Origin: an uncultured Clostridia bacterium
GTDB lineage: Bacteria > Bacillota > Clostridia > Christensenellales > Borkfalkiaceae
Length of the DNA stretch: 64,000 bases
Direction: 5' to 3'
NCBI GenBank assembly: GCA_944367465.1
Contig: CALVWO010000001.1
Span: forward strand, 6,758-70,757
Shown here: positions 16,907-35,340 of the stretch, one piece after another
Layout of the letters: each line of letters starts with the position of its first letter
Numbering within the stretch: position 1 is the stretch's first letter
Position numbers and translations under genes: made by a program
Notes under the pieces: generated by a model
Database searches by the model: none
What the model saw: the letters and a program-made list of their open reading frames with translations, nothing else
Told to the model about the DNA's origin: nothing

Positions 16907-16993
16907 GCCGCTGTGGTGGAATTGGCAGACGCGCTGGACTCAAAATCCTGTGGTAGTGATACCGTATCGGTTCGACCCCGATCAGCGGCACCA
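16907..16993 (+). tRNA. tRNA-Leu(CAA), intact; its 3' 55 nt lie inside the attL repeat
   Basis: Acceptor GCCGCTG/CAGCGGC plus ACCA. Anticodon loop CTCAAAA. Long variable arm. T-arm GGTTCGACCCC. Confidence 0.85.
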
Positions 16994-17031
16994 TCTAAAT
17001 TCGGTCATTTTTGAGCTGTTTCGCTTAAAAA
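16939..17031 (+). repeat. attL: 93-bp direct repeat (tRNA-Leu from the anticodon loop to the 3' end, plus 38 nt downstream)
   Basis: Identical to 35248-35340 by base-by-base comparison. Imperfect similarity continues for about 55 nt further (…TTTCAGC[A/G]AATTGAAATATATAGCAT). Confidence 0.9.
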
Positions 17032-17467
17032 TGGTCGTTTTTTTTCTTTTTTTCAGCAAATTGAAATATATAGCATAATTCACATTTCCCCAATTTTCCC
17101 CAATCACCGAAAATCCGTTTTTGCTCCCGCACCTTTCCTTGGGTGCGGTTTTGATTTTCTGCGCCGGCACCGCGCCCTGGAAGAACCGCGGCGCGGCGGG
17201 CGGCGCCGCTCCCCTCTCTTCCTGATCGGCGCCATAGGGATAACCGCTTGCAGGACATTCCGCGACCCTCGGGCGCAGTCCTGATCTATCCGCTTGCGCG
17301 GGCGCGCCCGCGCCGTGCTGCAAATCCAAGCCGCCCGCCGATCGGACGATTCCGGGGGAACGCAGCGAGCACATAACACGCCCTGCGGGCGGCTTCCGAT
17401 CTTTCCTTCGTACGGACGGGGGCGGAGCGCCGTCCTATGATTACAGAATACTTAGATACTATACTTA

Positions 17468-17514
17468 TAGTGTCTGTTTTTGATTGCTTTTTCAAAGAGT
17501 AGTGTCTGCTTTTG
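17468..17514 (+). repeat. Direct 15-mer repeat pair TAGTGTCTG(T/C)TTTTG (iteron-like)
   Basis: Copies at 17468-17482 and 17500-17514 match at 14 of 15 positions. They lie in a 650-bp non-coding stretch next to the rep-like gene. Confidence 0.6.
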
Positions 17515-17579
17515 CGCGCGTTAGCGGCGAATCGTGAGCGCGCGAAAAGTATCAAATTCGGACAGTAATCAGGACATAG

Positions 17580-17610
17580 GAAACGGCGCTCCGATGCGGA
17601 GCGCCGTTTC
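17580..17610. repeat. Perfect 14-bp stem hairpin with no flanking T-run
   Basis: GAAACGGCGCTCCG, loop ATG, CGGAGCGCCGTTTC. Confidence 0.7.
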
Positions 17611-17698
17611 TCAAAAACCCGGGTCAGATCACACGACGATAAGCGCGATCGCTCGCGCTTTTCTTTTTATTCAGTTCGCCTGCACTTTCTTATATCCG

Positions 17699-18742
17699 TC
17701 ATGTTCGCCGCCTCCCCCTTTTCTCGGGATAGCAGTCGCACAAATGACCGTCCGGAAGATAGCCTGTATCAGAGCACTTCGGACATATATATTTCGGCTC
17801 CAGATCTTCGAACGTCATGTTCATGGCTGTCAGACGCTCGGCTTTGACGGCAGCGGCGATCTTCTGCTTTCGGATCAGCTCCTGCAAGCCCGGAAGCGAG
17901 AACGCCTCCGCTTTGCCGATTCGGATATCCAGACTGCGATACTCCCGTTCTGCGTCTGCAAAGCGGGCGTCCTCCATAGCCCGTGCCCGCATTTCCTCCG
18001 CGCGGCTTGTGGCGGCGTTTCGGCGCAAAGCATAGAATCTCTCTCGCTCCGCTCTCGCATCCGCGTTCCGCGTTCTTTCGTCTTTGCCTTTTGCGCGCCT
18101 GACGATCTCCTCGCGCTTTGCGCGCAGGAGCTTTCCGTTGACATGGAATTTTGCCCGTTGGTAGTTGTTTCTTGCCGCGCCCTCAACGTATACGAGCCCC
18201 ATCGCCTTCAGGCGGTCGATACTCTTGATGACGGTATCCTTCCCGAACGGCAGGCGGCGCGCGATCCCGCGGCAGGATCCCGACCATGCCTTTTTGTTCT
18301 TGGAGAATGAAATGAGATAGCTTAGCACAAGGACTTCGTTCTTCGTCAGATAGCGCAGCACGCCGTCCGCCTCGAATTGCGCATGATAGAGCCACTCCTC
18401 GATGTATAAATACGGCTCGTCCTCTTTGATCCCTTTGCTCTGATACTCATGCACGTTATCCCCGCGCTCGGCGAGATCGTTATCCAGGACGACGCGGATG
18501 GCACGCGATACAGACGCGCGGGAGATGCGGTATCGCTTGTTGAGCTCGGAATATGTAAAATCGCTCTTATGTCCATCGGCGGAAAAACTGAAAATGGCAG
18601 AGCACACCAAAAGCGCGGCACCGCAGAGCTTTCGCTCGCGCCCGTTCCGCATGACCGTGCGTCCCATAAGACTGTACGGGACGCGCACAAACCCGCTGTG
18701 CGAGCCTCCCGCCCGATTTAATTTTTCCGCCGTATTCATCAT
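17699..18742 (-). CDS. Replication initiator/organizer-like DNA-binding protein (two wHTH-like segments plus a C-terminal zinc ribbon)
   Basis: 347 aa. Contains YRISRASVSRAIRVVL and CRGIARRLPFGKDTVIKSIDRLKAMGLVYVEG. An R/A/E-rich coiled stretch is followed by CPKCSDTGYLPDGHLCDC, which resembles the N-terminal zinc ribbon of DnaI/DnaC-type loaders. No AAA+ motifs. Confidence 0.5.
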   Translation of the reverse strand: MMNTAEKLNRAGGSHSGFVRVPYSLMGRTVMRNGRERKLCGAALLVCSAIFSFSADGHKSDFTYSELNKRYRISRASVSRAIRVVLDNDLAERGDNVHEYQSKGIKEDEPYLYIEEWLYHAQFEADGVLRYLTKNEVLVLSYLISFSKNKKAWSGSCRGIARRLPFGKDTVIKSIDRLKAMGLVYVEGAARNNYQRAKFHVNGKLLRAKREEIVRRAKGKDERTRNADARAERERFYALRRNAATSRAEEMRARAMEDARFADAEREYRSLDIRIGKAEAFSLPGLQELIRKQKIAAAVKAERLTAMNMTFEDLEPKYICPKCSDTGYLPDGHLCDCYPEKRGRRRT

Positions 18743-18871
18743 AGCATTTTCCTCTCAATATCCCTTGCTGCGGGGCTTTCCCGCCCCGCGCGGGATATTT
18801 CGTTCGTTCCCGTTTCTGGGAATGGGGCGGGTCTTACGCGCCCGCTATACGCTTTTTTTCAAAGTCCGCGA

Positions 18872-19264
18872 TTACGAAAGTATTCTGCGGAGCGTTTGTT
18901 CGACGTCGGCGCGATACGCGCTTTGCAAGCGATAGACTGCCGACTGATCTTCAAACCGTTCCGCTACTTCCGCGACCCTCTCCGCGATCCATTGCACCGC
19001 GTCCGCATAACTCGTTTTGCCGCTGAACTCCACTTCTCGAAAATAAGCTTCGGGATCGATAGTCTCGCCGCATACTTTCCGCACGAAGAACTCCGTTTTT
19101 ACCTCGTCTATCGTGCTTTGGATGCGAATCTGATATCCGACATGCTCATACCAAAGCGATATCCATGTTTCAAACCTCTGCCCGTTGAACGTCCAATTAT
19201 GGTTGTTCCTGTCCACCGTCTTGATAATCTGCCTCGTGAGCTTCGCCCTTGCCTTTTCCGTCAT
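18872..19264 (-). CDS. Hypothetical protein (element)
   Basis: 130-aa ORF co-directional with and upstream of the rep-like gene. No recognisable motif. Confidence 0.5.
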   Translation of the reverse strand: MTEKARAKLTRQIIKTVDRNNHNWTFNGQRFETWISLWYEHVGYQIRIQSTIDEVKTEFFVRKVCGETIDPEAYFREVEFSGKTSYADAVQWIAERVAEVAERFEDQSAVYRLQSAYRADVEQTLRRILS

Positions 19265-19286
19265 ATTCGCATCTCCTTGTTTTATT

Positions 19287-19349
19287 CGTTTTGAATAATT
19301 ATATTACTCATTTTGAATAAAGTCAAGTATTATTTTTCATTTTGAATAA
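19287..19349 (+). promoter_or_regulatory. Three direct copies of (C)(A/G)TTTTGAATAA, putative operators in a divergent promoter region
   Basis: Copies at 19287-19298, 19309-19320 and 19338-19349. They lie between the minus-strand gene starting at 19264 and the plus-strand XRE gene. Confidence 0.55.
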
Positions 19350-19350
19350 A

Positions 19351-19569
19351 ATGAATTTTATGAATACTTTTTCGGAAAGGCTCACCGAACTGAGAAAAGA
19401 ACGCGGACTTACCTTAAAACAAGTATCAGCTGCGTTGTCTATTCCGCTTCAAACGTATGCTAATTATGAGCATGGAACCCGACAACCGCCAATCGAACTT
19501 ATTGTGGAAATCTGCAAATTTTATTGTGTTACATCCGATTATTTAATCGGGCTGTCTGACAGCTATTAA
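19351..19569 (+). CDS. XRE-family HTH regulator (Cro/CI-like)
   Basis: Contains FSERLTELRKERGLTLKQVSAALSIPLQTYANYEHGTRQP. The track start at 19342 is TTG; the first ATG is at 19351. No clear SD, so the mRNA may be near-leaderless. Confidence 0.8.
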   Translation: MNFMNTFSERLTELRKERGLTLKQVSAALSIPLQTYANYEHGTRQPPIELIVEICKFYCVTSDYLIGLSDSY

Positions 19570-19765
19570 TCTGCGCTTTAATAATCTCTTCGGCGGTTTC
19601 CCCGTATATATTTGCAAGGACAAGAACTTGTTCTATCCCAATTTTTCTGTTGCCATTCTCATAATTTGAAAATCCCGAGACGCTCACACCCAAAGCGGCG
19701 GCGACGTCGGCACGGGTCTTTCCGCTCTGTTCCCGCAACTCTCGCAAAGTCATCCCATCGTTCAT
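19529..19765 (-). CDS. XRE-family HTH regulator
   Basis: 78 aa. Contains MTLRELREQSGKTRADVAAALGVSVSGFSNYENGNRK. Convergent with the previous gene; their 3' ends overlap by 41 nt. Confidence 0.8.
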   Translation of the reverse strand: MNDGMTLRELREQSGKTRADVAAALGVSVSGFSNYENGNRKIGIEQVLVLANIYGETAEEIIKAQINSCQTARLNNRM

Positions 19766-19794
19766 ACTCCTACCTCAAACGCCTGTACGGACGT

Positions 19795-20010
19795 TTATTC
19801 TTTTTTCAAGTACAGCTTGCCGTCGGTGCAGCCGATCACGCCGGCGGACATCAGTTTTCCGACATTATAGGTGACCGTGGATCGGGAACAACCCAGGCGG
19901 CGCGCGATATCCTCAAAGTCCACGCGGCGCGCGCCCTCCGCAAGCTCGTCCGCAAGCAGACAATACAGCCGCGTTTCGTAGTTCTCCAGCCTCGTGATCG
20001 CGCCATCCAT
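19795..20010 (-). CDS. Small winged-helix DNA-binding protein
   Basis: Start MDGAITRLE at 20010, preceded by GGAGGGG. Contains FEDIARRLGCSRSTVTYNVGKLMSAGVIGCTDGKLYL. The longer track ORF is probably a 5' over-extension. Confidence 0.65.
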   Translation of the reverse strand: MDGAITRLENYETRLYCLLADELAEGARRVDFEDIARRLGCSRSTVTYNVGKLMSAGVIGCTDGKLYLKKE

Positions 20011-20187
20011 CGTTCCCCTCCTTCCGGCGGCTCCACCGCCGTTTTTTGCCGATTTTTCCCGATTTTCGCCCCCTCCTTCGGGGCGGCTCGAAAATCCGCT
20101 ATTCAGCGGATTTTCGAGAAATTCCATGCGGTACCTTCGCTTTCTCAGCACCCGCGCGACAAAGCCGCGCGGGATTTAGTACCGCCG

Positions 20188-20338
20188 TCCGTTTATTTTC
20201 TGCGCGATTTTGAAAGTAATGACAAAATTTTCAAACGAATTTCGCCCCATCGGGCGAAATTCGCCTTCGGTTCGTCTCGAATTTGAAAATTTTTAATGTC
20301 ATTCCTTCTTTTCAAAATCGCGCAAATACAAATAAACG
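20188..20338. repeat. 151-nt long imperfect inverted repeat (compound hairpin) in the intergenic region after the Zot-like ATPase gene
   Basis: Hand pairing found these stems: 20188-97 with 20329-38 (10 bp), 20201-14 with 20309-22 (14 bp), 20217-22 with 20297-302 (6 bp), and 20223-34 with 20281-92 (12 bp). There is also an inner perfect 11-bp hairpin, GAATTTCGCCC, loop CATC, GGGCGAAATTC (20236-20261). Confidence 0.85.
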
Positions 20339-20390
20339 GATAACAACACCGCTGCGCCGTTGATGCAGCCATGCTCCGCGTTACGCAATC

Positions 20391-21671
20391 TTACGCCGTG
20401 CGCCGTTTGGGCTTGTCGTCCTGATCGCGGACGCGCACTTCATCTTCGCCCACCAAAAGCGTTTCCCACGTCGCAAGATCGATGGGTTTATCCTTCGCCT
20501 GATACATTTTCCACCACGTTCTGCCATCGTAGTCCGCCATACCGCGGCGCGGAAAAATGTATGTACCGCGATCGAACACGGTACCCTGCCCGTTTGCTCC
20601 GCCATGCGTATACGGAATTTTCCGAAATCCGATCGTTTCAAGATATTTCTCTCGATAAAAATACTTTTCACCGATATACTGCGCCTTTTCACGGCTGATT
20701 TTGCCCTCTTGCAGCCGCCGAAAATAGCGATTTTTCTGCTTTTGAAAGATCTTCCACGCAAAATTCGGTGCCATGATCGTTTCCTGCCGCTGCAAATTGA
20801 TGTTATAATCCGTCACGCCGCGTATCTGGACGGCGTTTCCCGTCTCCCGCTGATCGGTATTGATCAACGTAAAGTCGCCGAAATGACGGATAAAACGATA
20901 TGTTGCCTGTTCTGCGAGCGACATATCCCGCGAACGGGACGCGCCGCTATCCAATCCCGATTCGTCCTTAAAAAGCACGGAATATTCGGGTACCCTCGTG
21001 ACCTGCGCCTCTACCTCGGGCGTCATAACGTAACTGAACCGCCCGAGAAGGTCGCGGAGCGGGATCGTAGAGACAAGACATGGAATATACCGCGCCTCCC
21101 GTTCTGCGTAGTAAATGTAGCTCTCTTCCAATGCCGCAAACTTTTCGATGGCGTCCGTGTTGCCCTCGAGCTTCCAGCGCGTCACCATGCCGTGTTGCAG
21201 GAAATAGTCGCTTTTCAGCTTCGCCCAACGGCTTGCAGCCACGGCGATCGCGATGTTTGCGCCACCAGAAAACGTCTTGCCACACCCCGGAACGCCCGTA
21301 AGCGTTACCACGCGCGCCGATCCGAGATAGTCCATCGCCTGAACGCGCGCGACGTTCTCGTAATATTTGCATCGGACAACGTTGACGAATGTTTTGATGA
21401 AAAACACCAGCGCGACGATCTGCACCACCAATGCGACGAGCCACAATACCACGTCCGCAATGAAGGAGACTTCCCACCGCCAACGGAAAAAGATCGAGAC
21501 ATCGAGAAAGGAATAGAGAAGATTCTGCCAGCCGTGATAATAATCCTTCGTCACGAAGTACGCTGCCACAAAAACCACGGCGGGAATGTAGTTATACCGC
21601 CTCGTGTTCTTGTACGGCTCCAAAAGCCGGGCTTGTTGCCGTGCAAACCACTCATCGCTGTGCGTTTTCAT
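20391..21671 (-). CDS. Zot/pI-like P-loop NTPase with an N-terminal transmembrane region
   Basis: 426 aa from ATG 21671. Two or three TM helices at roughly residues 30-100. Motifs in order: GVPGCGKT, STIPLRD, VLFKDESG, FIRHFGDFTLINTDQ. This order parallels the Zot/pI motifs GxxGxGKT, TN.., hhhDE, HRxxGxDhhhhTQ. Confidence 0.55.
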   Translation of the reverse strand: MKTHSDEWFARQQARLLEPYKNTRRYNYIPAVVFVAAYFVTKDYYHGWQNLLYSFLDVSIFFRWRWEVSFIADVVLWLVALVVQIVALVFFIKTFVNVVRCKYYENVARVQAMDYLGSARVVTLTGVPGCGKTFSGGANIAIAVAASRWAKLKSDYFLQHGMVTRWKLEGNTDAIEKFAALEESYIYYAEREARYIPCLVSTIPLRDLLGRFSYVMTPEVEAQVTRVPEYSVLFKDESGLDSGASRSRDMSLAEQATYRFIRHFGDFTLINTDQRETGNAVQIRGVTDYNINLQRQETIMAPNFAWKIFQKQKNRYFRRLQEGKISREKAQYIGEKYFYREKYLETIGFRKIPYTHGGANGQGTVFDRGTYIFPRRGMADYDGRTWWKMYQAKDKPIDLATWETLLVGEDEVRVRDQDDKPKRRTA

Positions 21672-21811
21672 AACCTTACCCCGACGAATACCCCGAGAAG
21701 GAATATGATCGCCGCGCACACCGCGATCAATACGACGACGTTGACCTTACGATCTGCGATCTTTTCCTTCTTTTTCGGTTGTTCCTGTTCCTTCTGTTCC
21801 CTGGTTTCCAT
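21668..21811 (-). CDS. 47-aa single-TM peptide, translationally coupled (ATGA) to the Zot-like ATPase
   Basis: Hand translation gives METREQKEQEQPKKKEKIADRKVNVVVLIAVCAAIIFLLGVFVGVRL. It is below the ORF-track size cutoff and fills the gap between neighbouring genes exactly. Confidence 0.55.
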   Translation of the reverse strand: METREQKEQEQPKKKEKIADRKVNVVVLIAVCAAIIFLLGVFVGVRL

Positions 21812-21814
21812 ATA

Positions 21815-23029
21815 TCACAAGTATTTTTCGTAGCGGTCATCGATGGATGCGACAAATTCCTTGTCGTACTTATCGATGGGAACGCTCCAAGCGCTTTCCA
21901 ATGCGTTCCAATGCCATCCGCGTTTCTTCAACGCGTAAATGAGCTGCGGTTTCGGGCGTGTGGTGAACTTGATGAATACGCGCTCGCCCGCGTCGATCCG
22001 CTTGCGGTAAGCGTTCAGATTGTCCGTTTCGAGGAGTTTCTGCGCCTTCGGCGCGCCCTGATAGGTGCCCGCCTTGATCTTGTCGTAGATCTTCGCCGCC
22101 GTCGTGTTCTTGCGGAAACGGTATTTTTTATCCATTTCGTCGTAAAGTTCGACAAACCGCGCGGGATCGTACTGCGCGATGGGCGTCAAAGCGTTTGCGA
22201 TCGTCGTGGGCGATGTGAACCACCCGCGCGCGAGAGCTTCTTTGAAATGCTCTTCTGCCCGTTTCGCATCCTTTGCGCTCGTATCCTCATATTGACGCTT
22301 GCTTTCTCTAACGCTCTCTTCGATCTTTTCGAACCACGTCACAAAATCATGCGCGTCGCGGAGGATCTGTTCGCTCTTGTCGTATTTTTTCGCATTGTAT
22401 CGCGCCGGTCCCGCAACCGTGATGGGAACATGCTGTGCTTCGAGCGAAAGTTTACGCGTCCAACGCTTATGGATCTGATCGATGATCTGCTGTTTTTTGC
22501 TGTCTGCAATATCCCAGCCCAAAACCCGATTAACGTAACGCTGATAATCCCGCGCGGAATTATCGCCGCGATTGAACATGCTGTTCCCGTTTGCCGTTTC
22601 AATGTCCCGCCGGTTCAGCTCGGGGATCACGACGGTGCTTTTCTGTTCGGCGGGCTGTGTCTCCCGTTTCATCGGCGCGGTGAGTTCCGTTTTTCCCCCG
22701 CTCACGACCGGAACGAGCAAAGCAGATACTGCTTTCGGGAGCGCCGCCTGCGGCTTTCTCGGCTCCAAAATGGGGCGCATAGGAGCGGAGGCAGTCTTTT
22801 TCTTCGAGGACTTCTTGCCCTTTGACTTCCCTTCTTTCCGGCGAGCACGCTCCTCCTTGCGATACGCGTTCCACGCCGCCCATGCCTCGCGCGGGCTCAT
22901 ACCGGATGTACTCATCCCGACACCCTCCAAAAGCCCGTACGGACGGCGCCTTAGGTCGCTTTTGACTTGCAGCATGCGGAGCTGCGTCGCCTGCTCCTCT
23001 TTTTCCTCCTCTTTAATGACTTTTCTCAT
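21815..23029 (-). CDS. Hypothetical 404-aa protein: Lys-rich N-terminal region plus a helical C-terminal domain
   Basis: Start ATG at 23029 (MRKVIKEEEKEE), preceded by GGAGGGG; the track start at 23065 is TTG. Contains KEGKSKGKKSSKKK and C-terminal LKKRGWHWNALESAW. Confidence 0.6.
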   Translation of the reverse strand: MRKVIKEEEKEEQATQLRMLQVKSDLRRRPYGLLEGVGMSTSGMSPREAWAAWNAYRKEERARRKEGKSKGKKSSKKKTASAPMRPILEPRKPQAALPKAVSALLVPVVSGGKTELTAPMKRETQPAEQKSTVVIPELNRRDIETANGNSMFNRGDNSARDYQRYVNRVLGWDIADSKKQQIIDQIHKRWTRKLSLEAQHVPITVAGPARYNAKKYDKSEQILRDAHDFVTWFEKIEESVRESKRQYEDTSAKDAKRAEEHFKEALARGWFTSPTTIANALTPIAQYDPARFVELYDEMDKKYRFRKNTTAAKIYDKIKAGTYQGAPKAQKLLETDNLNAYRKRIDAGERVFIKFTTRPKPQLIYALKKRGWHWNALESAWSVPIDKYDKEFVASIDDRYEKYL

Positions 23030-29348: not shown

Positions 29349-29385
29349 CTCCTTCAGGGCGGGATTCCGCTCATATCTCACCTCC

Positions 29386-29613
29386 TCACAGATACTTCCC
29401 TGCGAGCCGCAGCAGCTCGCGCGCCGCTTCAAAATTTACTTTGATGTTCCCGCAGTCATCGCTGATCGCCTCGTTCACCGCTGCCGCAAGTTCGCTCAAC
29501 GCCTCGTCCAACCGCTTGGCGGTCGTCACAAGCTGCGGACGCTCCTTTTGGAAATTCACGAACGCGATAAACTCCTCCTGCCCCATCTCTACCGTCACGC
29601 GCATGCCGTTCAT
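29386..29613 (-). CDS. Small hypothetical protein, paralog of 30115-30345
   Basis: 75 aa from ATG 29613, with an ATGA overlap on the upstream stop. N-terminus MNGMRVTVEMGQEEFIAFVNF resembles MITVQMTREEYERFQAF. Confidence 0.55.
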   Translation of the reverse strand: MNGMRVTVEMGQEEFIAFVNFQKERPQLVTTAKRLDEALSELAAAVNEAISDDCGNIKVNFEAARELLRLAGKYL

Positions 29614-29879
29614 CCGCTCACCTCTCCCCGCATGCGGGGATCTGCCTCTGCGGATCCGCACGCCTGCAAGATCTCTCCGTCCCCGTTTCCGGGGATAACG
29701 TTCGGAAGCCGATACAGCAGATACACATAGCGCCGATCTCTCATGAATGCGGCACCGTGTGCATGCAATACCGTAATTGTCTGCGTCAGCTTGTCGTACC
29801 GTAAAACGGGAAACCCATCGGGCAGCGCCGCGATATCCTTTTCGTCAAGTTCCCACAATAAAATGCTGATCGTTTTCAT
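29610..29879 (-). CDS. Small hypothetical protein (element)
   Basis: 89-aa ORF with 4-nt overlaps at both ends with its neighbours. Confidence 0.5.
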   Translation of the reverse strand: MKTISILLWELDEKDIAALPDGFPVLRYDKLTQTITVLHAHGAAFMRDRRYVYLLYRLPNVIPGNGDGEILQACGSAEADPRMRGEVSG

Positions 29880-30103
29880 CGTCCGCCGAGACCTCCGTCT
29901 ACAGCGACCTGGAATATGATGGAGTATGCTCCGTTCATGATATCCGCTACTTCCGGCTCACCCTTCTGGGCGGCGAGCGCCGCAAGATGTACAAGCACCA
30001 ACGACGCATGCGCCAGATCCGTGCTCCCGAACCCGATCCTTCTCACCTGTTCCATCCGCAATTCCGTACTCGGTATGTCCCGCAGCATATCTGTTACTTT
30101 CAT
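29876..30103 (-). CDS. Small hypothetical protein (element)
   Basis: 75 aa, MKVTDMLRDIPSTELRMEQV..., preceded by GGGGGCGAAGAA. This is the 3' part of a 210-aa track ORF; the upstream part of that ORF overlaps better ORFs. Confidence 0.5.
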   Translation of the reverse strand: MKVTDMLRDIPSTELRMEQVRRIGFGSTDLAHASLVLVHLAALAAQKGEPEVADIMNGAYSIIFQVAVDGGLGGR

Positions 30104-30114
30104 TTCTTCGCCCC

Positions 30115-30345
30115 CTATGCAAGTATCTCCGCGGCGCAATCGATCGCACGGCGCGCCGCCACCGTATTTTTCAATGAGATCCCTTCCAGATCGGAACTCA
30201 TCGCCGCCAATACCGCTTCGGAGAGCTCCTCCGCCTGCTTGCGAAAGAGCTTGTCCTGCGTTCGGATGCTCTCGATCGTCCGTTCCGCACCGCGGAACGC
30301 CTGGAACCGCTCGTACTCCTCTCTTGTCATTTGCACCGTGATCAT
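30115..30345 (-). CDS. Small hypothetical protein, paralog of 29386-29613
   Basis: 76 aa, MITVQMTREEYERFQAFRGAE...AARRAIDCAAEILA. Confidence 0.55.
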   Translation of the reverse strand: MITVQMTREEYERFQAFRGAERTIESIRTQDKLFRKQAEELSEAVLAAMSSDLEGISLKNTVAARRAIDCAAEILA

Positions 30346-30536
30346 TGCTTTCCTCCCGTCTGCGAACGGTTAATTTCGATTTCCGCATATACCCGCTCGT
30401 ACTTGCTGTTCCCGCGGTTGGCATACGGGTCGGAAACGGAAAGAATTTCGATTTCGCCTCGGCGCTCACAGGCATCCAAAAATTTTTTCGCCTGCTCGTT
30501 CTCTTCACGCGTGCCTTGAATCCTGATTTTTACCAT
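30342..30536 (-). CDS. Small hypothetical protein (element)
   Basis: 64 aa, MVKIRIQGTREENEQAKKFLDACERRGEIEILSVSDPYANRGNSKYERVYAEIEI. ATGA overlap with the next gene. Confidence 0.55.
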   Translation of the reverse strand: MVKIRIQGTREENEQAKKFLDACERRGEIEILSVSDPYANRGNSKYERVYAEIEINRSQTGGKQ

Positions 30537-30701
30537 GTTGCTTCTCCTATTTTCTCACCTTGCGGCGGTTTTCCCGACTTCTCCTGAACGGCTGCCTCCG
30601 AACTGCGGCGGCAGCCGCCCATAGGAGAATGCTTTCGCCGATGCGGAGGTGCGCCCTCCCGTCAAGGGGTAACGCCGCCGCTTGCGGACATCGGCATATC
30701 T

Positions 30702-31520
30702 TCAAGAACCGTCGCTCAGGCGATTCGTTCCGCCTTCCGGCAGGACATCTGCCGCGGTCAGTTCCGTTCCCTGCGTTCCTTCGTCACGAACGTACAGCGC
30801 CCACTCGCGCCCGAATTTCTCTTCGAGACGGCGGGCAGCGTTCCATCGCTTGATCTCCTCCTCGTTTTGCCATGCGCAGACGCAGATCTCGCCGTTCTCC
30901 CTGAGCCCGCTGCCGCCGCAGAACGGGCATTTTTGTACGGGCTCGAATATCCTGACGTCGATCCCCGCCCGCTCGCACGCCTTCTTGCGCTCGCCGAGAA
31001 TCTGCATATATTCACGGATCAGCTTGCTCACGCGCACATGATCTTCTGCGGCTTCCGCATCGGCAAGCGCTGCCTCCGCCTCTTTTTTTGCCTTTTCGTT
31101 TCCTGCGAACGCGGGATAGGTTTCCGCCAGCTTTATGCGCGCCGCCGCAGCGTCGCGTTTGCGCTTGCTTTCCATCCCCTTGTAGTAGGCTGTCACTTCC
31201 GATTTCAGAAGCGGGATCTCCTCCGCCTTCCCGGGCATGACCTCCTGCGCCCGACAGAATGAAAAATGAGCGGAAAGGCGCTCCAACGTGACGGGGCGCT
31301 CCGTAAAGATGTTCTTCTTCCCGCCGAGCGTCTCGACCGCGTACAGCTCCCCTCTCCGCTCAGAGTAGTCGCATGCTGAAATTGTCACTTTGCCGATCTC
31401 TTCTTCGGCTGTTCCGTAAAGGGCATACACCGCGCCGACACCATAGTTAAAGTACAGCCGTCCATCGTTCCCCACGATAGGCTGTAACCCACTGCTTTTC
31501 TTCGCTCGCGATGCTGCCAT
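30702..31520 (-). CDS. Hypothetical protein with a coiled A/E/K-rich region and a CPFCGGSG..C.C zinc ribbon
   Basis: 272 aa. Contains QKCPFCGGSGLRENGEICVC, the same ribbon type as the C-terminus of the rep-like protein at 17699-18742. Confidence 0.55.
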   Translation of the reverse strand: MAASRAKKSSGLQPIVGNDGRLYFNYGVGAVYALYGTAEEEIGKVTISACDYSERRGELYAVETLGGKKNIFTERPVTLERLSAHFSFCRAQEVMPGKAEEIPLLKSEVTAYYKGMESKRKRDAAAARIKLAETYPAFAGNEKAKKEAEAALADAEAAEDHVRVSKLIREYMQILGERKKACERAGIDVRIFEPVQKCPFCGGSGLRENGEICVCAWQNEEEIKRWNAARRLEEKFGREWALYVRDEGTQGTELTAADVLPEGGTNRLSDGS

Positions 31521-31534
31521 ACTTCGCTCCCCTA

Positions 31535-31780
31535 TTATTCTTGGAAATTCGCTGCCCGAAGAGTTCTGACGATCTCCTCGAAGCTCTCGCGGACGGGGAT
31601 CCCGACCCTGATCCTTCCGTTCCTGGCTCGCTCCATTTGGATAAAAACAGCTCCTTCTAATTCGACAACCGAGATGATCTCCCTGATGGCGATCATGTGC
31701 GGAATATCTGCCCGCCCCTTTTTACTGATTTGATGAACTAAGATAAATCCCGCGCGTTCTGCACACTCTCCCGAAAGCAT
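31535..31780 (-). CDS. Small hypothetical protein, first gene of the long minus-strand operon
   Basis: 81-aa ORF preceded by AAGGAGGAAAAA. Confidence 0.55.
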   Translation of the reverse strand: MLSGECAERAGFILVHQISKKGRADIPHMIAIREIISVVELEGAVFIQMERARNGRIRVGIPVRESFEEIVRTLRAANFQE

Positions 31781-31863
31781 TTTTTCCTCCTTAAAATCTC
31801 TTCGTGCTGTCTTACGATATCGGCATGTGAAAATATATTTGCACTCCTTTCACAATTGTTTCA

Positions 31864-31892
31864 TTGAAGATAATTGTTATTCGTGATATAAT
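31864..31892 (+). promoter_or_regulatory. Near-consensus promoter: TTGAAG, 17-nt spacer, TATAAT with TGn extension
   Basis: TTGAAG at 31864-69, 17-nt spacer ending in TGA, TATAAT at 31887-92. The downstream gene has the RBS AAAGGAGGTGAAGAA. Confidence 0.65.
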
Positions 31893-31945
31893 TTATATGG
31901 CGTACAATCCGCCCTTGTACGACTACCTGAAAAGGAGGTGAAGAA

Positions 31946-32203
31946 ATGAAAATTGCGGTCAAGATAACCTTGATTTTGTGTGAGTATGCAGTCTTGCTGT
32001 TGCTATTCATTCCATATCTCTTTCTTGTTTGTTGCGCTTCTATTGTGTACAACGTTATTGACCTGATTTCGGATGTACAAGATGAAAAGCATATTAAAAA
32101 CAAACAGACACGCGCCACCCGTCAAATTGATAGAGATAACAAACGCAGGCATACCATTGCAAACATGGTTTTCGGATATTGGAAAGAGCGCTTATTCTCG
32201 TAA
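31946..32203 (+). CDS. Small membrane protein (one or two TM plus a basic tail), AT-rich
   Basis: 85 aa, MKIAVKITLILCEYAVLLLLFIPYLFLVCCASIVYNVI... Strong RBS and promoter. Confidence 0.65.
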   Translation: MKIAVKITLILCEYAVLLLLFIPYLFLVCCASIVYNVIDLISDVQDEKHIKNKQTRATRQIDRDNKRRHTIANMVFGYWKERLFS

Positions 32204-32488
32204 AACCCAACTTCTTTCGTCATAGTCTGTGTTTTTAGAAGTAATCAGCTCAATTGTTTCAATTACGCCCAATATCTCCGCCGCACATTCCGTTAATTTT
32301 ATTTTTATTTGCCATCCCGCTTTAAGCCCGCTCGCTTTCGAGCGGGCTTTATACTGCACGTCAAGAAACTCTCTGTAAAACTCCCGCAGCAATTTCAGCA
32401 ATTTATCAAGAGAAAGTTCCTTAAACACATTGTCAAGGAGCTTTTTTTCTTTTATCTCTTGAAATGTCTTCCTGCGAACTCTATCCAT
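32192..32488 (-). CDS. Small hypothetical protein, divergent from the XRE repressor-like gene
   Basis: 98 aa with RBS GGAGCGAAGT. Lys/Glu-rich and helical. Confidence 0.5.
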   Translation of the reverse strand: MDRVRRKTFQEIKEKKLLDNVFKELSLDKLLKLLREFYREFLDVQYKARSKASGLKAGWQIKIKLTECAAEILGVIETIELITSKNTDYDERSWVLRE

Positions 32489-32576
32489 ACTTCGCTCCTT
32501 TATGGAATCAATCCCGTATCCTTGAAATCTTGCTCGTCTCGATATTATACAAGTTAGTTTATTCTAAAAATTCCAT

Positions 32577-32639
32577 ATTTGCATTTTTCTTGAGATTATA
32601 TCATGCATTTTTGGATTTGTCAACACAAAAAATGCAAAT
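32577..32639. promoter_or_regulatory. Three copies (two direct, one inverted) of a TTGCATTTTT-like motif, putative operators
   Basis: ATTTGCATTTTT at 32577-88, TCATGCATTTTT at 32601-12, and AAAAAATGCAAAT (inverted) at 32626-39. They lie between the divergent genes at 32488(-) and 32669(+). Confidence 0.5.
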
Positions 32640-32668
32640 TTGTATAAAATGTTTTTGAGGAGGCTGAT

Positions 32669-33022
32669 ATGAGATTGAAAGATCTTCGCGAAGAACATAA
32701 TCTTACTCAGAAAGAACTTGGCGCTCTTGTAGGCGTTGCGCAGTCTAATATCAACCGTTGGGAAAATGGAACCGTCTGCCCTTCCGCAGATTTTGTTGTT
32801 AAACTTGCTGATTATTTCGATGTCTCAACCGACTATCTTCTCGGGCGTACGGACGAACTCGGCGCAGTCATCACCCCTTTCCCCCCTTCAGATGATTACA
32901 CAGATGAGGAGAAAAAGCTGATCGCGGACTACCGCGAGCTCACGCCCCCTTTGAAACGTATGATCCAGGAGACCCTCAAAACATGGAAAAGCTCAGAGAT
33001 CAACACGAAAAAACTTTCTTGA
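32669..33022 (+). CDS. XRE-family HTH regulator (repressor-like)
   Basis: 117 aa. Contains MRLKDLREEHNLTQKELGALVGVAQSNINRWENGTVCP. RBS GAGGAGG. Confidence 0.85.
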   Translation: MRLKDLREEHNLTQKELGALVGVAQSNINRWENGTVCPSADFVVKLADYFDVSTDYLLGRTDELGAVITPFPPSDDYTDEEKKLIADYRELTPPLKRMIQETLKTWKSSEINTKKLS

Positions 33023-33324
33023 TGAAATCGGATCCCGTTCTGCTTGCGCTTGTCGCGCTTTTCTCCCGCTGCGAGCATGTGGAACGAGCCGCACTCTTCG
33101 GCTCCCGTGCCCGCGGCGACTTTTCTGAACGGAGCGATTACGATATTGCCGTGTTCGGAACGATTCCCGAAAGCGCCAAACTGCAGCTGCGCAGCGCCTG
33201 CCGCGAAGGGCTCCCCACCCTGCACAAGATCGATCTTATCTTTGCAGATGAGGTCACGGACGAAAAATTTATGCAAAGCATTCTGAAGGAGGGCGTTACG
33301 TTCTATGACAAAACTGCAAAATAA
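33022..33324 (+). CDS. Nucleotidyltransferase-domain protein (MNT-type, HI0073-like)
   Basis: Contains GSRARGDFSERSDYDIAVFG (the GS-x10-DxD NTase motif). Start ATG at 33022 overlaps the XRE stop. Confidence 0.8.
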   Translation: MKSDPVLLALVALFSRCEHVERAALFGSRARGDFSERSDYDIAVFGTIPESAKLQLRSACREGLPTLHKIDLIFADEVTDEKFMQSILKEGVTFYDKTAK

Positions 33325-33709
33325 ATACGAAAACTATTCTGCCGCAGTAAAACGGCTGAACGAGGCAAACATTGCCTACAAGAAAAACGCCGACAACGAT
33401 ATCTATCAGGACGCGCTCATCAAACGTTTTGAATTTACCTTTGAGCTTTGCTGGAAAACGCTGCGTGAATTTATGCTCGATCAGGGCTACCTTTTGGAGA
33501 TCGCTTCCCCCAAGGGCGTTTTCGCGCTCGCCTATCAGGAAGGCATCCTCAGTGATGAGGCGCTCTGGTTGGACATGTTGGAATCGCGCAATCTGACTTC
33601 GCACGATTACGGACGAAAAACTGCCGAAGTGATCGCCGAAAAGATCAGCAACCGCTATGCAAAAGCACTTACGGAACTGAGCAAATACATCTCTTCCGCA
33701 CTCAAATAA
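33305..33709 (+). CDS. HI0074-family nucleotidyltransferase substrate-binding (HEPN-like) protein
   Basis: 134 aa. Contains ALIKRFEFTFELCWKTLREFM and RNLTSHDY. Overlaps the MNT gene by 20 nt. Confidence 0.8.
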   Translation: MTKLQNKYENYSAAVKRLNEANIAYKKNADNDIYQDALIKRFEFTFELCWKTLREFMLDQGYLLEIASPKGVFALAYQEGILSDEALWLDMLESRNLTSHDYGRKTAEVIAEKISNRYAKALTELSKYISSALK

Positions 33710-34115
33710 AAACGCGCTCGCTTTTTTCTTTGAAAAAAGTGAGCGAAATTCTACTTTTGTTTTGTTATAAAATTAACTCCGAGGGCGCACTTGCCCGAAA
33801 GGAGTATTTTATGACGTTTCAAGAACAAACCGAGCTGTTAATGACAGCCATCCAAAGCCTGATGGCACTTTACAGGGATATTACAGAAATTGACCGCCCC
33901 TTCGTGCGCGTGTCTTTTTCTGAACTAAAAAAAATCCCGAGCCATCGACTGCGGCTGACGCCGCGCAGAGTGCCCAGGCGGTTTTGCTCGACTTCACCGC
34001 CGAGCTGGAAAAGCGGAAAAGCCGCATGGAGCAAAACTCCATGCAGCCGATCGCGCCGCCGGATCATACGGCAAAAACGGAATTTTTGGAATTTACACCA
34101 AAGGAGATTTCAAAA

Positions 34116-35117
34116 ATGCCGACATTTTTTAGAAAAGAATTTCGCTTAAAAGGAGGTACCGTCGCACACATAAGAGTAAAGCCAAACGGAAGTTACGAGA
34201 TCAGATACCGCCGCGGCGGTATCAATCTCAGTGTATCGGCAAAAACAGTTGAAGCAGCCAAAGAACGATTTATCGAAAAACTCTGTGAGGCAAAAACGGA
34301 CAGCCTAAATAGCCGTACCCTTTTCGGGCAATATGCAACGCAGTGGCTTGAAGTTGTCAAAAAACCACAAGTAAAAGAAACGACTTACGAAGATTATAAG
34401 GTCATGTTCCGCGTTCATATATTTCCGAAATTCGGAAAAATGAGGATGCGCGACATAAAGCCCATCGATGTGCAGAAGCTCATTAACTTCATCTGCGAAA
34501 AGAAAACATTTCGTAACGCTGAAAAAGTCTATGTTCTCTTGAACGCCGTATTCAATTTTGCTGTTGCAGAAAATGTAATAGCGAAATCACCCATGGCACT
34601 CATTAAAAAGCCCGTCCATGAGCCGAAGCACGGACAGGCTTTTACGGTAGACGAGGAGCGGCGTCTCGTAGAAAAATGTCTTGCGGAAAACACACTCTAC
34701 GGTTACGCATTTATCTTTATGCTTTATACGGGGCTGCGTCGTTCAGAGCTATCGTCTGTTACGATCCAATCACAATGGATCACGCTGTATACCGCCAAGA
34801 ACAGACAAGGAACAAACCCAAAAATGCGTAAAATTCCGATCTCCCCCATGCTGCGACCATTTATTCCATTGATGAATCAAAAGATTTTTCAGTTAGACAT
34901 GGGGAATATGTCACGCACCTTCGCGAAATATTTCCCTGGGAGGCATCTTCACGAACTGCGCCATACGTTTATCACAAGATGTCAGGAATGTGGGATCTCT
35001 CGTGAATTGACTTCCCTTTGGGCGGGACACAAGGCAGACAACACGATGACGTCTAATGTCTATACGCATTTTTCCGAAGAGTTCCAACTTGGAGAAATTC
35101 AAAAGCTGCGATACTAA
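34116..35117 (+). CDS. int: Tyrosine recombinase/phage integrase
   Basis: Start MPTFFRKEF is preceded by AAGGAG. The frame is open from 33924. Catalytic region GLRRSEL ... HELRHTFITRC ... NVYTHF. Lies 130 nt from attR. Confidence 0.9.
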   Translation: MPTFFRKEFRLKGGTVAHIRVKPNGSYEIRYRRGGINLSVSAKTVEAAKERFIEKLCEAKTDSLNSRTLFGQYATQWLEVVKKPQVKETTYEDYKVMFRVHIFPKFGKMRMRDIKPIDVQKLINFICEKKTFRNAEKVYVLLNAVFNFAVAENVIAKSPMALIKKPVHEPKHGQAFTVDEERRLVEKCLAENTLYGYAFIFMLYTGLRRSELSSVTIQSQWITLYTAKNRQGTNPKMRKIPISPMLRPFIPLMNQKIFQLDMGNMSRTFAKYFPGRHLHELRHTFITRCQECGISRELTSLWAGHKADNTMTSNVYTHFSEEFQLGEIQKLRY

Positions 35118-35247
35118 GAGAATGTTTTCCCCATAATTTCCCCGTATTTATAAAACGAGGATGAATTTATTATGAATATTCTGCTTTTTTATGTTGATTT
35201 TATGCGGAAAATCACAAAATTCAATGAATAAATGCAGAACGACACAT

Positions 35248-35340
35248 CTCAAAATCCTGTGGTAGTGATACCGTATCGGTTCGACCCCGATCAGCGGCAC
35301 CATCTAAATTCGGTCATTTTTGAGCTGTTTCGCTTAAAAA
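35248..35340 (+). repeat. attR: second copy of the 93-bp repeat (contains a non-functional 55-nt 3' fragment of tRNA-Leu)
   Basis: Identical to 16939-17031. The sequence 5' of 35248 does not match the tRNA. Confidence 0.9.

Follow-up and report, generated by a model that had tools for sequence, protein, structure and literature searches.

The window, the whole stretch of 64,000 nucleotides analysed here, carries an element of 18,309 bp (17032-35340, including one repeat copy) inserted at a tRNA-Leu(CAA) gene. Genes for polA, coaE and an SLT protein lie on the left flank, and DUF1848, RsmB/F and flavodoxin genes lie on the right. The features of the locus are as follows.

16907-16993, plus strand: intact tRNA-Leu(CAA) gene, the integration target (ARAGORN; Rfam tRNA, 48 bits)
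16939-17031, plus strand: attL core, the left copy of a 93-bp perfect direct repeat
17002-17045, plus strand: tRNA terminator hairpin and T-run, spanning the end of the core (terminator scan)
17032-17086, plus strand: element-borne degenerate copy of the host sequence 3' of the tRNA, attP arm
17087-17698, no strand: G+C-rich non-coding 0.6 kb from att to the replication gene
17699-18742, minus strand: replication initiator or organiser, 347 aa (Pfam HTH_36 9e-12, DnaD_N weak)
18872-19264, minus strand: replication-module protein, 130 aa
19280-19355, no strand: three 25-nt repeats with the core TTTTGAATAA, overlapping an 11/12 promoter on the minus strand
19529-19765, minus strand: XRE-type HTH regulator, 78 aa (Pfam HTH_31 1e-14)
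19795-20010, minus strand: winged-helix regulator, 71 aa from an internal ATG (Pfam HTH_24)
20391-21719, minus strand: P-loop ATPase with N-terminal membrane helices, a putative divergent Zot/pI-like morphogenesis ATPase
21815-23065, minus strand: 416-aa protein (404 aa from 23029), adjoining the ATPase
23179-24302, minus strand: three small, very basic proteins of 111, 140 and 108 aa (pI 10.1-10.7)
24333-24710, minus strand: 125-aa protein with four hydrophobic helices (gene calls of L002, L031 and L032)
24712-26670, minus strand: beta-rich protein of 652 aa, exported, with a signal-like segment at its N-terminus and a membrane anchor at its C-terminus (residues 627-651)
26667-28814, minus strand: two acidic, N-terminally anchored surface proteins, 345 and 348 aa
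28841-29173, minus strand: 110-aa protein with one membrane helix
29386-30536, minus strand: five small genes, 75, 89, 75, 76 and 64 aa (gene calls of L002 and L031)
30702-31520, minus strand: 272-aa conserved protein with a coiled coil and a CxxC...CxC Zn ribbon (NCBIfam PRK06835 N-terminal region, 1e-3)
31535-32488, minus strand: first genes of the leftward operon, 81 and 98 aa
31946-32203, plus strand: hydrophobic ORF, 85 aa
32489-32668, no strand: divergent switch region (promoter scan, inverted repeat)
32669-33022, plus strand: XRE/CI-type repressor candidate, 117 aa (Pfam HTH_3 1e-18, Phage_CI_repr weak)
32983-33709, plus strand: MNT nucleotidyltransferase and HEPN-like pair, overlapping genes of 113 and 134 aa
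34041-35117, plus strand: tyrosine integrase, 358 aa (Pfam Phage_int_SAM_3 8e-19, Phage_int_M, Phage_integrase; PHROG_1 4.5e-49)
35248-35340, plus strand: attR core, the right 93-bp copy, a tRNA 3' fragment without the 5' half

A sequence-only reading of the window had described a perfect 93-bp direct repeat running from the anticodon loop to 38 nt past the tRNA gene. Base-by-base comparison bears this out. Positions 16939-17031 equal 35248-35340 at all 93 bp, and the exact match grows by no base in either direction. From the anticodon loop on, the left core comprises the rest of the tRNA gene and the 38 nt that follow it. Its first base is tRNA position 33, two nt ahead of the anticodon (16941-16943), and its last base lies 38 nt beyond the encoded CCA, past the terminator hairpin. 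An exact match of 93 nt cannot have arisen by chance within 64 kb. The 5' half of the tRNA gene (16907-16938) is purely host DNA, and the right copy lacks these 32 nt, as had been claimed; tRNA calling, which the same reading had proposed for both copies, returns with ARAGORN a tRNA on the left and none at 35248-35340. Between the end of the integrase ORF (35117) and the right copy lie 130 nt, and both flanks carry the housekeeping genes named earlier (polA/coaE on the left, DUF1848 and the rRNA methyltransferase RsmB/F on the right). Degenerate similarity had been reported for about 55 nt past the core. It amounts to 83% identity between 17028-17086 and 35336-35394 with a 1-nt offset (repeat family D4), and the attR core is followed by host-type sequence up to about 35394. 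The element thus does carry a longer host-like stretch, and this stretch covers the tRNA terminator. Comparison of the two copies shows that the 3' arm of the terminator hairpin, TGGTCG, is element-derived and that pairing is kept through G-U pairs. In L022-type strains, the stretch from 17032 onward matches the host for 44 further nt.

The same junctions occur in independent assemblies (L001, L022, L024-L026, L035 and L042), so the insertion is not an assembly artefact. Site-specific integration into the tRNA 3' end, the central proposal of the sequence-only reading, is supported by empty sites, which that reading had suggested seeking. In metagenome contigs of strains about 98.5% identical, polA, tRNA-Leu and DUF1848 are contiguous, with one repeat copy. 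One such contig, L018 (ERZ1090879, 11.7 kb), was found with a search pattern that joins the 5' half of the tRNA through 88-98 N to the right flank; the contig is collinear with window positions 12880-17080 and then passes straight to 35248-42843 at about 98.5% identity; it has a single repeat copy and an intact tRNA. The site is also empty, with a single repeat copy, in L020, a 94-kb contig, and in three similar places. Contigs with the identical PolA allele are occupied in L021, L022 and L024-L026, and strains sharing this allele have the site empty, or carry the same element, or carry a mosaic variant. With both empty and occupied sites the locus is polymorphic, which refutes a fixed remnant. 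The genes of the element are all open and 97-99% identical to copies from other samples, and modules have been exchanged between variants. One relative (L015) is flanked by 62-nt repeats of tRNA-Ser(CGA) that enclose 13,059 bp, and another (L004) abuts the 3' end of tRNA-Tyr. The proposed search for a circular form had a divided outcome: no excised circle of the exact element with its own integrase was found, whereas close relatives have joints of attP type, attP being the attachment site on the free form. In L032, the replication gene is joined to the integrase over 800 nt with only a 23-nt tRNA 3'-end fragment inside, an attP-type joint. The 20,514-bp contig L008 wraps round: the replication gene is followed by the integrase and then by the first structural gene, the overlap being predicted at about 30 nt, and this wrap points to a joint of the same type. 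Insertion and mobility in the population are demonstrated, and the element is intact, integrative and recently mobile.

The ends of the element are ordinary, with a tyrosine integrase, an MNT/HEPN pair, an XRE switch and a DnaD-like initiator; it is the 11-kb core that is unusual. The integrase ORF opens at TTG 33984, the 358-aa form is already on record, and the catalytic set is complete (R233, H304-x-x-R307, H330 and Y341). The MNT/HEPN pair matches Pfam Polbeta (7e-14) and NTase_sub_bind (1e-33) as well as PADLOC PDC-S09, and by these matches is a predicted type VII toxin-antitoxin or defence cargo. The switch promoter is a 12/12 consensus with an extended -10 on the minus strand, from 32623 to 32595, bracketed by the inverted repeat 32574-32588/32628-32642. 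At the replication end, the non-coding stretch 17087-17698 has hairpins and a palindrome that is perfect over 14 nt (17580-17610); ORFs within it resemble out-of-frame junk, and the stretch is a candidate origin or integrase arm-site region. The 347-aa initiator, kept across relatives, matches PHROG replication initiation and DnaD-like families and the NCBIfam PRK06835 N-terminal region (4e-8). It has a DnaD-like winged helix-turn-helix (wHTH) followed by a C-terminal coiled coil and Zn ribbon, and its C-terminal part resembles the N-terminus of clostridial DnaC-type helicase loaders. The 272-aa protein likewise resembles a helicase-loader N-terminus. The three repeats at 19280-19355, upstream of the replication genes, are a candidate operator or iteron. 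The ORF of the winged-helix regulator runs on to 20151, and the gene calls of L002 and L031 give 70-71 aa.

Nothing in Pfam or PHROG matches the 11-kb core. For its five small genes, the calls of L002 and L031 were preferred to a long ORF at 29876-30508, which is mostly an artefact. The 110-aa protein, a candidate small structural membrane protein, has a basic N-terminus and an acidic repeated C-terminus from a 69-nt tandem duplication (28883-29020). A (PEE)n linker occurs in the first of the acidic surface proteins, an Ig-like segment in the second. No marker of the element family is more widespread than the 652-aa protein, which occurs in at least 407 clusters, has no Pfam domain and is a candidate adsorption or envelope protein. 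Its AlphaFold2 (AF2) model (pLDDT 86, pTM 0.84) has no match in BFVD, and a sequence profile finds none in the PDB. That so confident a model is unlike any known viral protein counts against a viral reading. The start of the 125-aa gene overlaps the stop of the 652-aa gene, and its product is pVI-like by position; a 127-aa ORF in another frame (24313-24696) was replaced by this gene on the calls of L002, L031 and L032. The three basic proteins are candidate DNA-binding or condensing proteins. The 416-aa protein, whose N-terminus is basic and of low complexity and whose C-terminal domain is helical, is kept beside the ATPase in relatives.

The ATPase counts 426 aa from the ATG at 21671 and carries the motifs GVPGCGKT (Walker A), FKDESG (Walker B) and RHFGD..INTDQ. 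In BFVD, its model (pLDDT 82) resembles Zot proteins of viruses and the 37-kDa protein of Acholeplasma phage L2 (E 3e-9 to 3e-4). In the PDB, the STIV B204 ATPase and the N-terminal domain of Zot match it only weakly, and FtsK, HerA and RecA folds are among the Foldseek matches as well (E ~1e-2). A profile search retrieved 316 representative proteins. In the alignment A3, with 37 other family members, Zot is the commonest Pfam family (8 of the 38 sequences scanned, best E 3e-5), and hhalign pairs A3 with the Zot protein of L021 at 94% probability (E 1e-7) across Walker B and the RHF motif. The L021 variant holds a true Zot gene in the position of the ATPase (Pfam 28.6 bits, cutoff 20.3; PHROG 'Zot-like toxin' 1e-16). 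The close ATPase family itself stays below the Pfam Zot threshold, with one of 25 members matching at E 0.029. Fold, profile and gene swap suggest a link, transitive and structural, between this ATPase and the Zot/pI assembly ATPases of filamentous phages. The order of anchored exported protein, 4-helix membrane protein and ATPase mirrors the gIII-gVI-gI order of Ff phages.

Searches with Pfam, PHROG and NCBIfam recognized no capsid, terminase, tail, lysis or conjugation genes in the element, nor other tailed-phage or satellite genes. The element family is absent from deposited phages and almost absent from IMG/VR, a scarcity that weighs against a viral nature. We suggest that the element is probably the provirus of an undescribed temperate, tail-less and non-lytic virus lineage of gut Clostridia. 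The integrase recombined attP on the element with the 3' portion of tRNA-Leu(CAA) in the host, the exact crossover probably lying in the anticodon loop. As attP bears a tRNA copy from the anticodon loop on and the tRNA terminator, the tRNA stays functional, and both ends show the 93-bp duplication. The XRE repressor, facing the consensus promoter, might keep the single leftward operon silent. Induction would lead to excision and replication as double-stranded DNA with the DnaD-like initiator and the host replisome. The element might then leave the cell across the membrane, aided by the membrane-anchored Zot/pI-like ATPase, in a particle made of the 652-aa anchored, 4-helix and N-anchored proteins together with the small basic DNA-binding proteins. 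These lifestyle and particle steps draw on gene content and analogy; they suggest an exit by extrusion or budding, different from that of an ordinary prophage. To our knowledge, budding is unprecedented for walled Clostridia, the hosts, and this too weighs against the reading.

A non-viral integrative element, which might be an integrative plasmid or else an unknown type of mobilisable or conjugative element, is the less likely but still plausible alternative. The membrane ATPase would then pump DNA between cells, with the surface proteins mediating cell contact. In actinomycete integrative and conjugative elements (AICEs), a single FtsK-like TraB moves DNA in this manner. Any integrative element could have such an integrase, tRNA target, replication module and circular form, and the N-terminal membrane helices of the ATPase recall coupling proteins and TraB, in line with its FtsK/HerA/RecA fold matches (E ~1e-2). 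The presence of several large proteins anchored at the surface, one of them with an Ig-like segment, and the near-absence of the family from viral catalogues point the same way. However, Pfam, NCBIfam and PHROG recognize no relaxase, VirB4, coupling protein or FtsK domain, and among named families Zot, not FtsK, comes closest to the ATPase superfamily. The ATPase is also interchangeable with a true Zot gene and has viral proteins as its best structural matches, and the small basic proteins and gIII-gVI-gI-like order are unparalleled in conjugation systems.

A phage satellite resembling a PICI island, without particle genes of its own and hijacking a helper phage, appears improbable. No PICI-typical small terminase, capsid-redirecting, primase or packaging-site genes are present, and over half of its length is taken up by a conserved block of membrane proteins with an assembly-type ATPase, foreign to satellites. 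A range of 13-20 kb, an integrase, a repressor, a replication initiator and no capsid genes would nevertheless suit one, and IME1, discussed below, was initially read in this way. Least credible is a decayed, fixed island bearing the mere scar of an old integration. The excised form of the exact element was not found and most genes have no assigned function, but the repeat is perfect, the genes are open and nearly identical across samples, identical-PolA strains have the site empty, variants exchange modules and relatives show attP joints. The presence/absence polymorphism already contradicts this explanation.

P4-, HP1- and mv4-type integrases are those of classical tRNA-integrating prophages and islands. 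There as here, attP carries the tRNA 3' part, so that integration rebuilds the tRNA gene; the identity block starts in the anticodon loop and the integrase gene adjoins att. Unlike in those systems, the block is as long as 93 nt here and 137 nt in other strains and takes in the tRNA terminator and further downstream host-like sequence, and the integrase lies at the end distant from the intact tRNA. With inoviruses and 'cryptic inoviruses' (Tubulavirales) the element shares a Zot/pI-like ATPase with a membrane segment, and N-terminal membrane segments have been accepted for inovirus ATPases (Roux et al. 2019, PMC6813254). It also shares an exported C-terminally anchored protein and a small multi-helix protein followed by the ATPase, a tyrosine integrase acting on a tRNA with direct repeats, toxin-antitoxin cargo and the lack of lysis genes. 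In contrast to inoviruses, the close ATPase family lies under the Pfam Zot threshold, no rolling-circle Rep, ssDNA-binding protein or 30-90-aa major coat protein was recognized in the element, and the three basic proteins and the 416-aa protein separate the pVI-like gene from the ATPase. The genome is about twice that of characterised inoviruses, with replication genes of double-stranded DNA type; 18 kb and a DnaD-type initiator are unlike classical inoviruses and speak against the viral reading.

Plasmaviridae, represented by Acholeplasma virus L2 (PMC12662186), resemble the element in being temperate circular dsDNA with tRNA integration and host-replisome dependence, in a long one-strand operon with a large exported 'envelope' protein, and in a P-loop ATPase encoded upstream of both integrase and attP. 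Structural matches of the ATPase in BFVD include the ORF3 protein of L2 (E 1.3e-4), and the basic proteins would fit a condensed nucleoprotein core by analogy. The sequence similarity to the L2 ATPase is nevertheless confined to Walker A, the one part aligned by hhalign, the 652-aa protein matches no L2 protein in BFVD, and L2 hosts are wall-less whereas the present hosts are walled. IME1 of Dehalococcoides is enriched in viromes, was at first taken for a satellite and is regarded by its authors as restricted to Chloroflexota (Nesbo et al. 2026, bioRxiv 10.64898/2026.09.15.751708). Both elements occur integrated and circular, have no tailed-phage hallmark genes and place the repressor on the opposite strand. 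Both are built of three modules, namely integrase and regulation, a central block of a pI-like ATPase with several membrane or signal-peptide proteins, and replication. The hosts differ (Chloroflexota versus Bacillota/Clostridia), as do size (21-28 kb versus 13-20 kb for the present family) and replication genes, with an archaeal-type primase-helicase and serine resolvase in IME1 versus the DnaD-like initiator here. Judged on gene layout rather than protein sequence, the Clostridia element may best be read as an analogue of Dehalococcoides IME1. If the viral reading is true, it represents an undescribed tail-less virus lineage in gut Clostridia.

The 18.3-kb element (17032-35340; 18,309 bp counting one repeat copy) has direct repeats at both ends, one of them inside an intact tRNA gene over its 3' part. 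The sequence-only reading had described the repeat as perfect over 93 bp and placed in tRNA-Leu(CAA). A repeat search and direct string comparison confirmed the identity, with no extension on either side, and ARAGORN and Rfam alike called the tRNA.

16907-16993, + strand: tRNA-Leu(CAA), anticodon at 16941-16943
16939-17031: left copy of the repeat (attL core)
35248-35340: right copy of the repeat (attR core)
17002-17045 and 35311-35354: tRNA terminator hairpin, spanning the end of the perfect repeat
34041-35117, + strand: integrase

The first base of the repeat is tRNA position 33, which lies in the anticodon loop two bases ahead of the anticodon; the last lies 38 nt beyond the encoded CCA. 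The right copy lacks the 32-nt 5' half of the tRNA and no tRNA is called there; the Rfam scan returned tRNAs only. Between the stop of the integrase ORF, 35117, and the right copy lie 130 nt. To the left of the element are polA, coaE and an SLT gene, to its right DUF1848, RsmB/F, flavodoxin and CobW-like genes, in line with the earlier description. The degenerate similarity noticed past the core was recovered as well, with 17028-17086 matching 35336-35394 at 83% identity and a 1-nt offset. Site-specific integration into the tRNA 3' end holds, since the integrase catalytic set, attL, attR and the empty site attB were all found. The earlier observation and its interpretation, taken together, are almost certainly correct.

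The integrase has 358 aa from the ATG at 34041, a form also on record elsewhere. It contains SAM-like and central domains with the catalytic residues R233, H304-x-x-R307, H330 and Y341, and its gene adjoins att. The anticodon loop is the classical crossover location of tRNA-targeting integrases, and crossover likely occurs there, where the identity block begins. A terminator scan showed that the tRNA terminator, a hairpin with a T-run behind it, has its 5' arm and its loop within the 38 nt past the tRNA. The core ends within the 3' arm of this terminator, where the element has TGGTCG and the host CGACCG; several bases differ, and both versions are still able to pair. The element thus supplies the 3' half of the tRNA along with a terminator of its own, and this accounts for the length of the repeat. 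In strains of the L022 type (an occupied locus), attL is identical to the host over 137 nt, hence attP alleles vary. The attP-joint pattern of the exact window element had no match in IMG/VR. In the relative L032, 95-98% identical across replication and structural genes and equipped with another integrase module, the replication gene and the integrase are joined by 800 nt that contain a 23-nt tRNA 3' fragment only, without a full tRNA. This junction is an attP-type joint. The same contig (ERZ27280756 k141_415814, 18,711 bp; its first 1.6 kb lie outside the stretch read) has a Zot gene at its start and a membrane-anchored ATPase near its end, with the joint between them. The assembly probably walks through two variants that co-exist, which would put the circle at about 13.4 kb. 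In another relative, L008, gene order wraps from the replication gene through the integrase to the first structural gene. This suggests a 20.5-kb circle, with a predicted overlap with the contig start of about 30 nt and 2.7 kb of the contig outside the stretch read. The point at which L007 and L008 diverge was considered as an att junction and dropped, as it looks like a variable region.

Empty sites exist among close relatives. An attB pattern, in which the last 23 nt of the tRNA 5' half and right-flank sequence are separated by any 88-98 bases, was run against public metagenome contigs; the match was L018 (ERZ1090879, 11,746 bp). The reverse complement of L018 follows window 12880-17080 at 98.7% and then runs straight into 35248-42843 at 97.7-98.5%. 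It holds a single 93-nt core copy, an intact tRNA-Leu(CAA) and host-type downstream sequence. The same pattern had no match in one-genome-per-species contigs. A second survey covered contigs coding a common PolA allele in the same 90%-identity cluster as the window PolA, and the 22 contigs read fall into four groups. The first is empty, with DUF1848 beside polA in L020 (a 94-kb contig) and three similar places; together with L018, these show the contiguous polA-tRNA-Leu-DUF1848 arrangement that the sequence-only reading had proposed to look for. The second carries the same element at 98.7% identity (L022, L024, L025, L026 and similar places), the third is represented by a mosaic variant in L021, and the fourth comprises four short contigs terminating in or beside the tRNA. 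The tRNA-Leu(CAA) site is polymorphic among very close strains and the insertion is real and recent, which excludes both a fixed remnant and an assembly artefact.

Other features of this chromosomal region are worth recording. A second leucine tRNA, tRNA-Leu(AAG) (12991-13075, - strand), lies 3.8 kb left of the target; the window, L018 and the longer loci with the polA allele (L020-L022) all have it unoccupied. Small indels beside it separate L018 and L020 from the window (alignment breaks at 12880-13011). Five further loci (L036, L037, L038, L043, L044) cease to match the window precisely at 35302, where the tRNA ends 3', and beyond the equivalent position lies another gene set including an ArdA anti-restriction gene. 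Some strains thus have another mobile element, unrelated to the first, which follows the tRNA fragment in tandem at this tRNA-Leu(CAA) site.

The cargo is organized around a 12/12 consensus promoter with an extended -10, located opposite an XRE repressor and flanked by an inverted repeat. Nearly all genes run leftward from it, and GC skew is strongly negative over the element.

Genes of the element, with numbers giving the leftward order
31946-32203, + strand: 85-aa hydrophobic ORF
1: small proteins
2: 272-aa Zn-ribbon protein
3: 110-, 348- and 345-aa acidic proteins, N-terminally anchored
4: 24712-26670, - strand, 652-aa exported protein with C-terminal anchor
5: 125-aa four-helix membrane protein
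6: three small, very basic proteins
7: 416-aa protein
8: 20391-21719, - strand, 442-aa P-loop ATPase with N-terminal membrane helices
9: two HTH regulators
10: 130-aa protein
11: 17699-18742, - strand, 347-aa DnaD-like initiator, its C-terminus resembling the N-terminus of clostridial helicase loaders

The integrase end additionally holds the XRE repressor and an MNT/HEPN toxin-antitoxin pair. The latter consists of overlapping MNT nucleotidyltransferase and HEPN-like genes beside the integrase (32983-33709), candidate cargo of the type VII toxin-antitoxin or defence kind; it also occurs in the relatives L003, L009 and L035, with a ParE/Phd pair instead in L004. Across 16 related loci, the conserved core comprises the 272-, 348-, 345-, 652-, 111- and 416-aa proteins, the ATPase, a winged-helix regulator and the initiator. 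Searches of 20391-31520 against Pfam and PHROGs matched nothing, bar one weak Ig-like match. PDB sequence searches with the ATPase, the 652-, 416- and 348-aa proteins and the replication protein returned P-loop noise only. Two coding repeats were observed, an in-frame 9-nt unit coding (PEE)n in the 345-aa surface protein (26965-27079) and, in the 110-aa protein, an in-frame tandem duplication of 69 nt within the acidic tail (28883-29020). These regions are also the most variable between the window and L002, a relative with 93-98% identity in mosaic blocks that terminates in another tRNA-like T-arm.

Relatives occupy other tRNA genes. L015 is a 13,059-bp element flanked by 62-nt repeats of tRNA-Ser(CGA), and L004 abuts the 3' end of tRNA-Tyr. 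The hosts in genome records are uncultured Clostridia, Christensenellaceae, Christensenella and Candidatus Scatosoma. In a Christensenella MAG, a relative that is far smaller, about 7.5 kb (L016:6463-13894), adjoins tRNA-Glu; a direct repeat was looked for there and none was found. The minimal gene set may be the one seen here, which comprises an integrase, an XRE regulator, the ATPase, the initiator and a 558-aa protein related to that of 652 aa. In some relatives a C5 DNA methylase gene separates the 130-aa gene from that of the initiator (L031:14768-15865, L007:15080-16297); it is absent from the window element.

The ATPase appears distantly linked to Zot. Its close family spans 27 clusters with no Pfam domain, and one of 25 members matched Pfam Zot (E 0.029). 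A profile search of 1.84 billion representative proteins retrieved 316 relatives, with none in IMG/VR. In the broader alignment, composed of the window ATPase and 37 other family members (mostly distant representatives), Zot was the commonest Pfam family (8 of the 38 sequences scanned, best E 3e-5). The AlphaFold model (pLDDT 82) gave weak Foldseek matches in PDB to RecA, the Zot N-terminal domain, the STIV B204 packaging ATPase and HerA (E about 6e-3 to 1e-2). Its best match in BFVD was an unnamed viral protein (E 3e-9), along with Zot of metagenomic Inoviridae (E 2e-5 to 3e-4) and the 37-kDa protein of Acholeplasma phage L2 (E 1.3e-4). AAA, STAND and IstB families matched only at the Walker A level. 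In the membrane part, residues 81-117 are hydrophobic and the model shows long helices at the N-terminus; shorter relatives retain one segment. Proteins of the pI-like kind with N-terminal membrane segments were accepted by Roux et al. 2019 (PMC6813254).

The most telling evidence on the ATPase comes from the mosaic variant L021. It shares with the window the att site, the end of the 652-aa gene and the initiator, the latter two about 98-99% identical. In place of the window's 416-aa gene and ATPase (20391-23065), L021:2083-2880 encodes a true Zot of 265 aa (Pfam 28.6 bits vs cutoff 20.3; PHROG 'Zot-like toxin', 1e-16). The replacement block contains different basic proteins, this Zot and a 220-aa acidic coiled-coil protein. 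L021 and the window represent a natural module swap between ATPase types. With hhalign, the broader ATPase alignment matched the L021 Zot at 94% probability (E 1e-7) over Walker B and the RHF..(T/D)Q motif; the close alignment without the distant members was uninformative.

The 652-aa protein belongs to a family of at least 407 clusters, all unannotated and together much larger than the close ATPase family. Its model, a confident one (pLDDT 86, pTM 0.84), has a beta-rich ectodomain and a C-terminal membrane helix; BFVD held no match for the model and PDB none for the sequence. The profile had one distant match in IMG/VR, on an 84-kb contig. Gene order in Ff (M13) is gIII-gVI-gI. By analogy only, the 652-aa gene takes the gIII place, with a small multi-helix protein next and the ATPase later.

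Judged from its genes, we consider it more likely than not that the element is a temperate, tail-less and probably non-lytic virus-like element exporting via a Zot/pI-like ATPase. An integrative element of non-viral nature would also use a tRNA site, and no capsid, terminase, tail or lysis genes are recognizable in the element; neither are relaxase or type IV secretion genes, and searches for ICE/IME genes (relaxase, coupling protein, VirB4, FtsK-like translocase) by Pfam, NCBIfam and PHROG found none. We regard this reading as unlikely. An actinomycete-type AICE was rejected for the wrong host and the missing FtsK domain. Dependence on a helper, as a phage satellite, is improbable. As for a tailed prophage, the whole element contains no Caudoviricetes genes (terminase, portal, HK97-fold capsid, tail) by Pfam/PHROG, and neither megablast of the whole element nor tblastn of the ATPase matched any of 50,697 phage records. 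Decay to a remnant can be given hardly any weight, and the same element recurs in several of the contigs surveyed. A membrane-containing icosahedral virus was dismissed as well, with no jelly-roll candidate and with mid-size proteins that appear N-terminally anchored or helical. Beyond the virus-like reading of this one element, a wider proposal falls slightly short of an even chance. The element may represent a widespread, unrecognized lineage of temperate dsDNA viruses that lack tails, are released chronically and infect gut Clostridia (Christensenellales and relatives), a lineage built on a divergent N-anchored pI/Zot-like ATPase and a structurally novel 652-aa envelope/adsorption protein.

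Integration into a tRNA is ordinary and textbook, here documented as a clean case with attL, attR, attB and population polymorphism. The element family is out of the ordinary, and the cargo matters more than the integration. Standard virus and plasmid detection tools miss the family. Its core lacks Pfam/PHROG matches, and the family is nearly absent from IMG/VR and absent from GenBank phages; it is nonetheless common in gut metagenomes, with active module exchange. If these are viruses, gut virome surveys overlook a class that infects Christensenellales-like bacteria without lysis and is shed chronically. At least two bacterial phyla would in that case harbour large dsDNA elements with a pI-type ATPase, which bears on the kinship of filamentous, plasma-like and archaeal budding viruses. 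The interchangeable ATPase modules (membrane-anchored vs classical Zot) and the empty and occupied strains are ready experimental material.

Among known systems, inoviruses have a pI/Zot ATPase that may be related to that of the element. Two further genes expected of them, for a rolling-circle Rep and for a small major coat protein with a single helix, were looked for and not found. Its proteins had no match to HUH or Rep_trans, the initiator being DnaD-like, and the smallest candidate membrane protein has 110 aa and the reverse polarity. The likeness to plasmavirus L2 lies at the fold level of the ATPase only, without shared sequence beyond Walker A (the sole hhalign match to L2 ORF3), and the 652-aa model had no L2 match. 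Two failed inovirus expectations and L2 sequence shared at Walker A alone place the element in no named family. The closest described analogue, likened by description, is IME1 of Dehalococcoides. IME1 is 21-28 kb, integrated and episomal, with a pI-like ATPase and membrane proteins; it is without tailed-phage genes, abundant in viromes and associated with filaments, and its authors confine the lineage to Chloroflexota (bioRxiv 10.64898/2026.09.15.751708). Its 14 conserved orthologous groups include an archaeal-type primase-helicase and a serine resolvase (bioRxiv 10.64898/2026.09.15.751708), and neither domain was found in the element proteins. The architecture is common to both, whereas replication genes and host phylum differ in the Clostridia family. 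If the wider proposal is true, the recently proposed IME1 lineage of Chloroflexota would have a counterpart in Bacillota in the form of this family, which might also link inoviruses with plasmaviruses.
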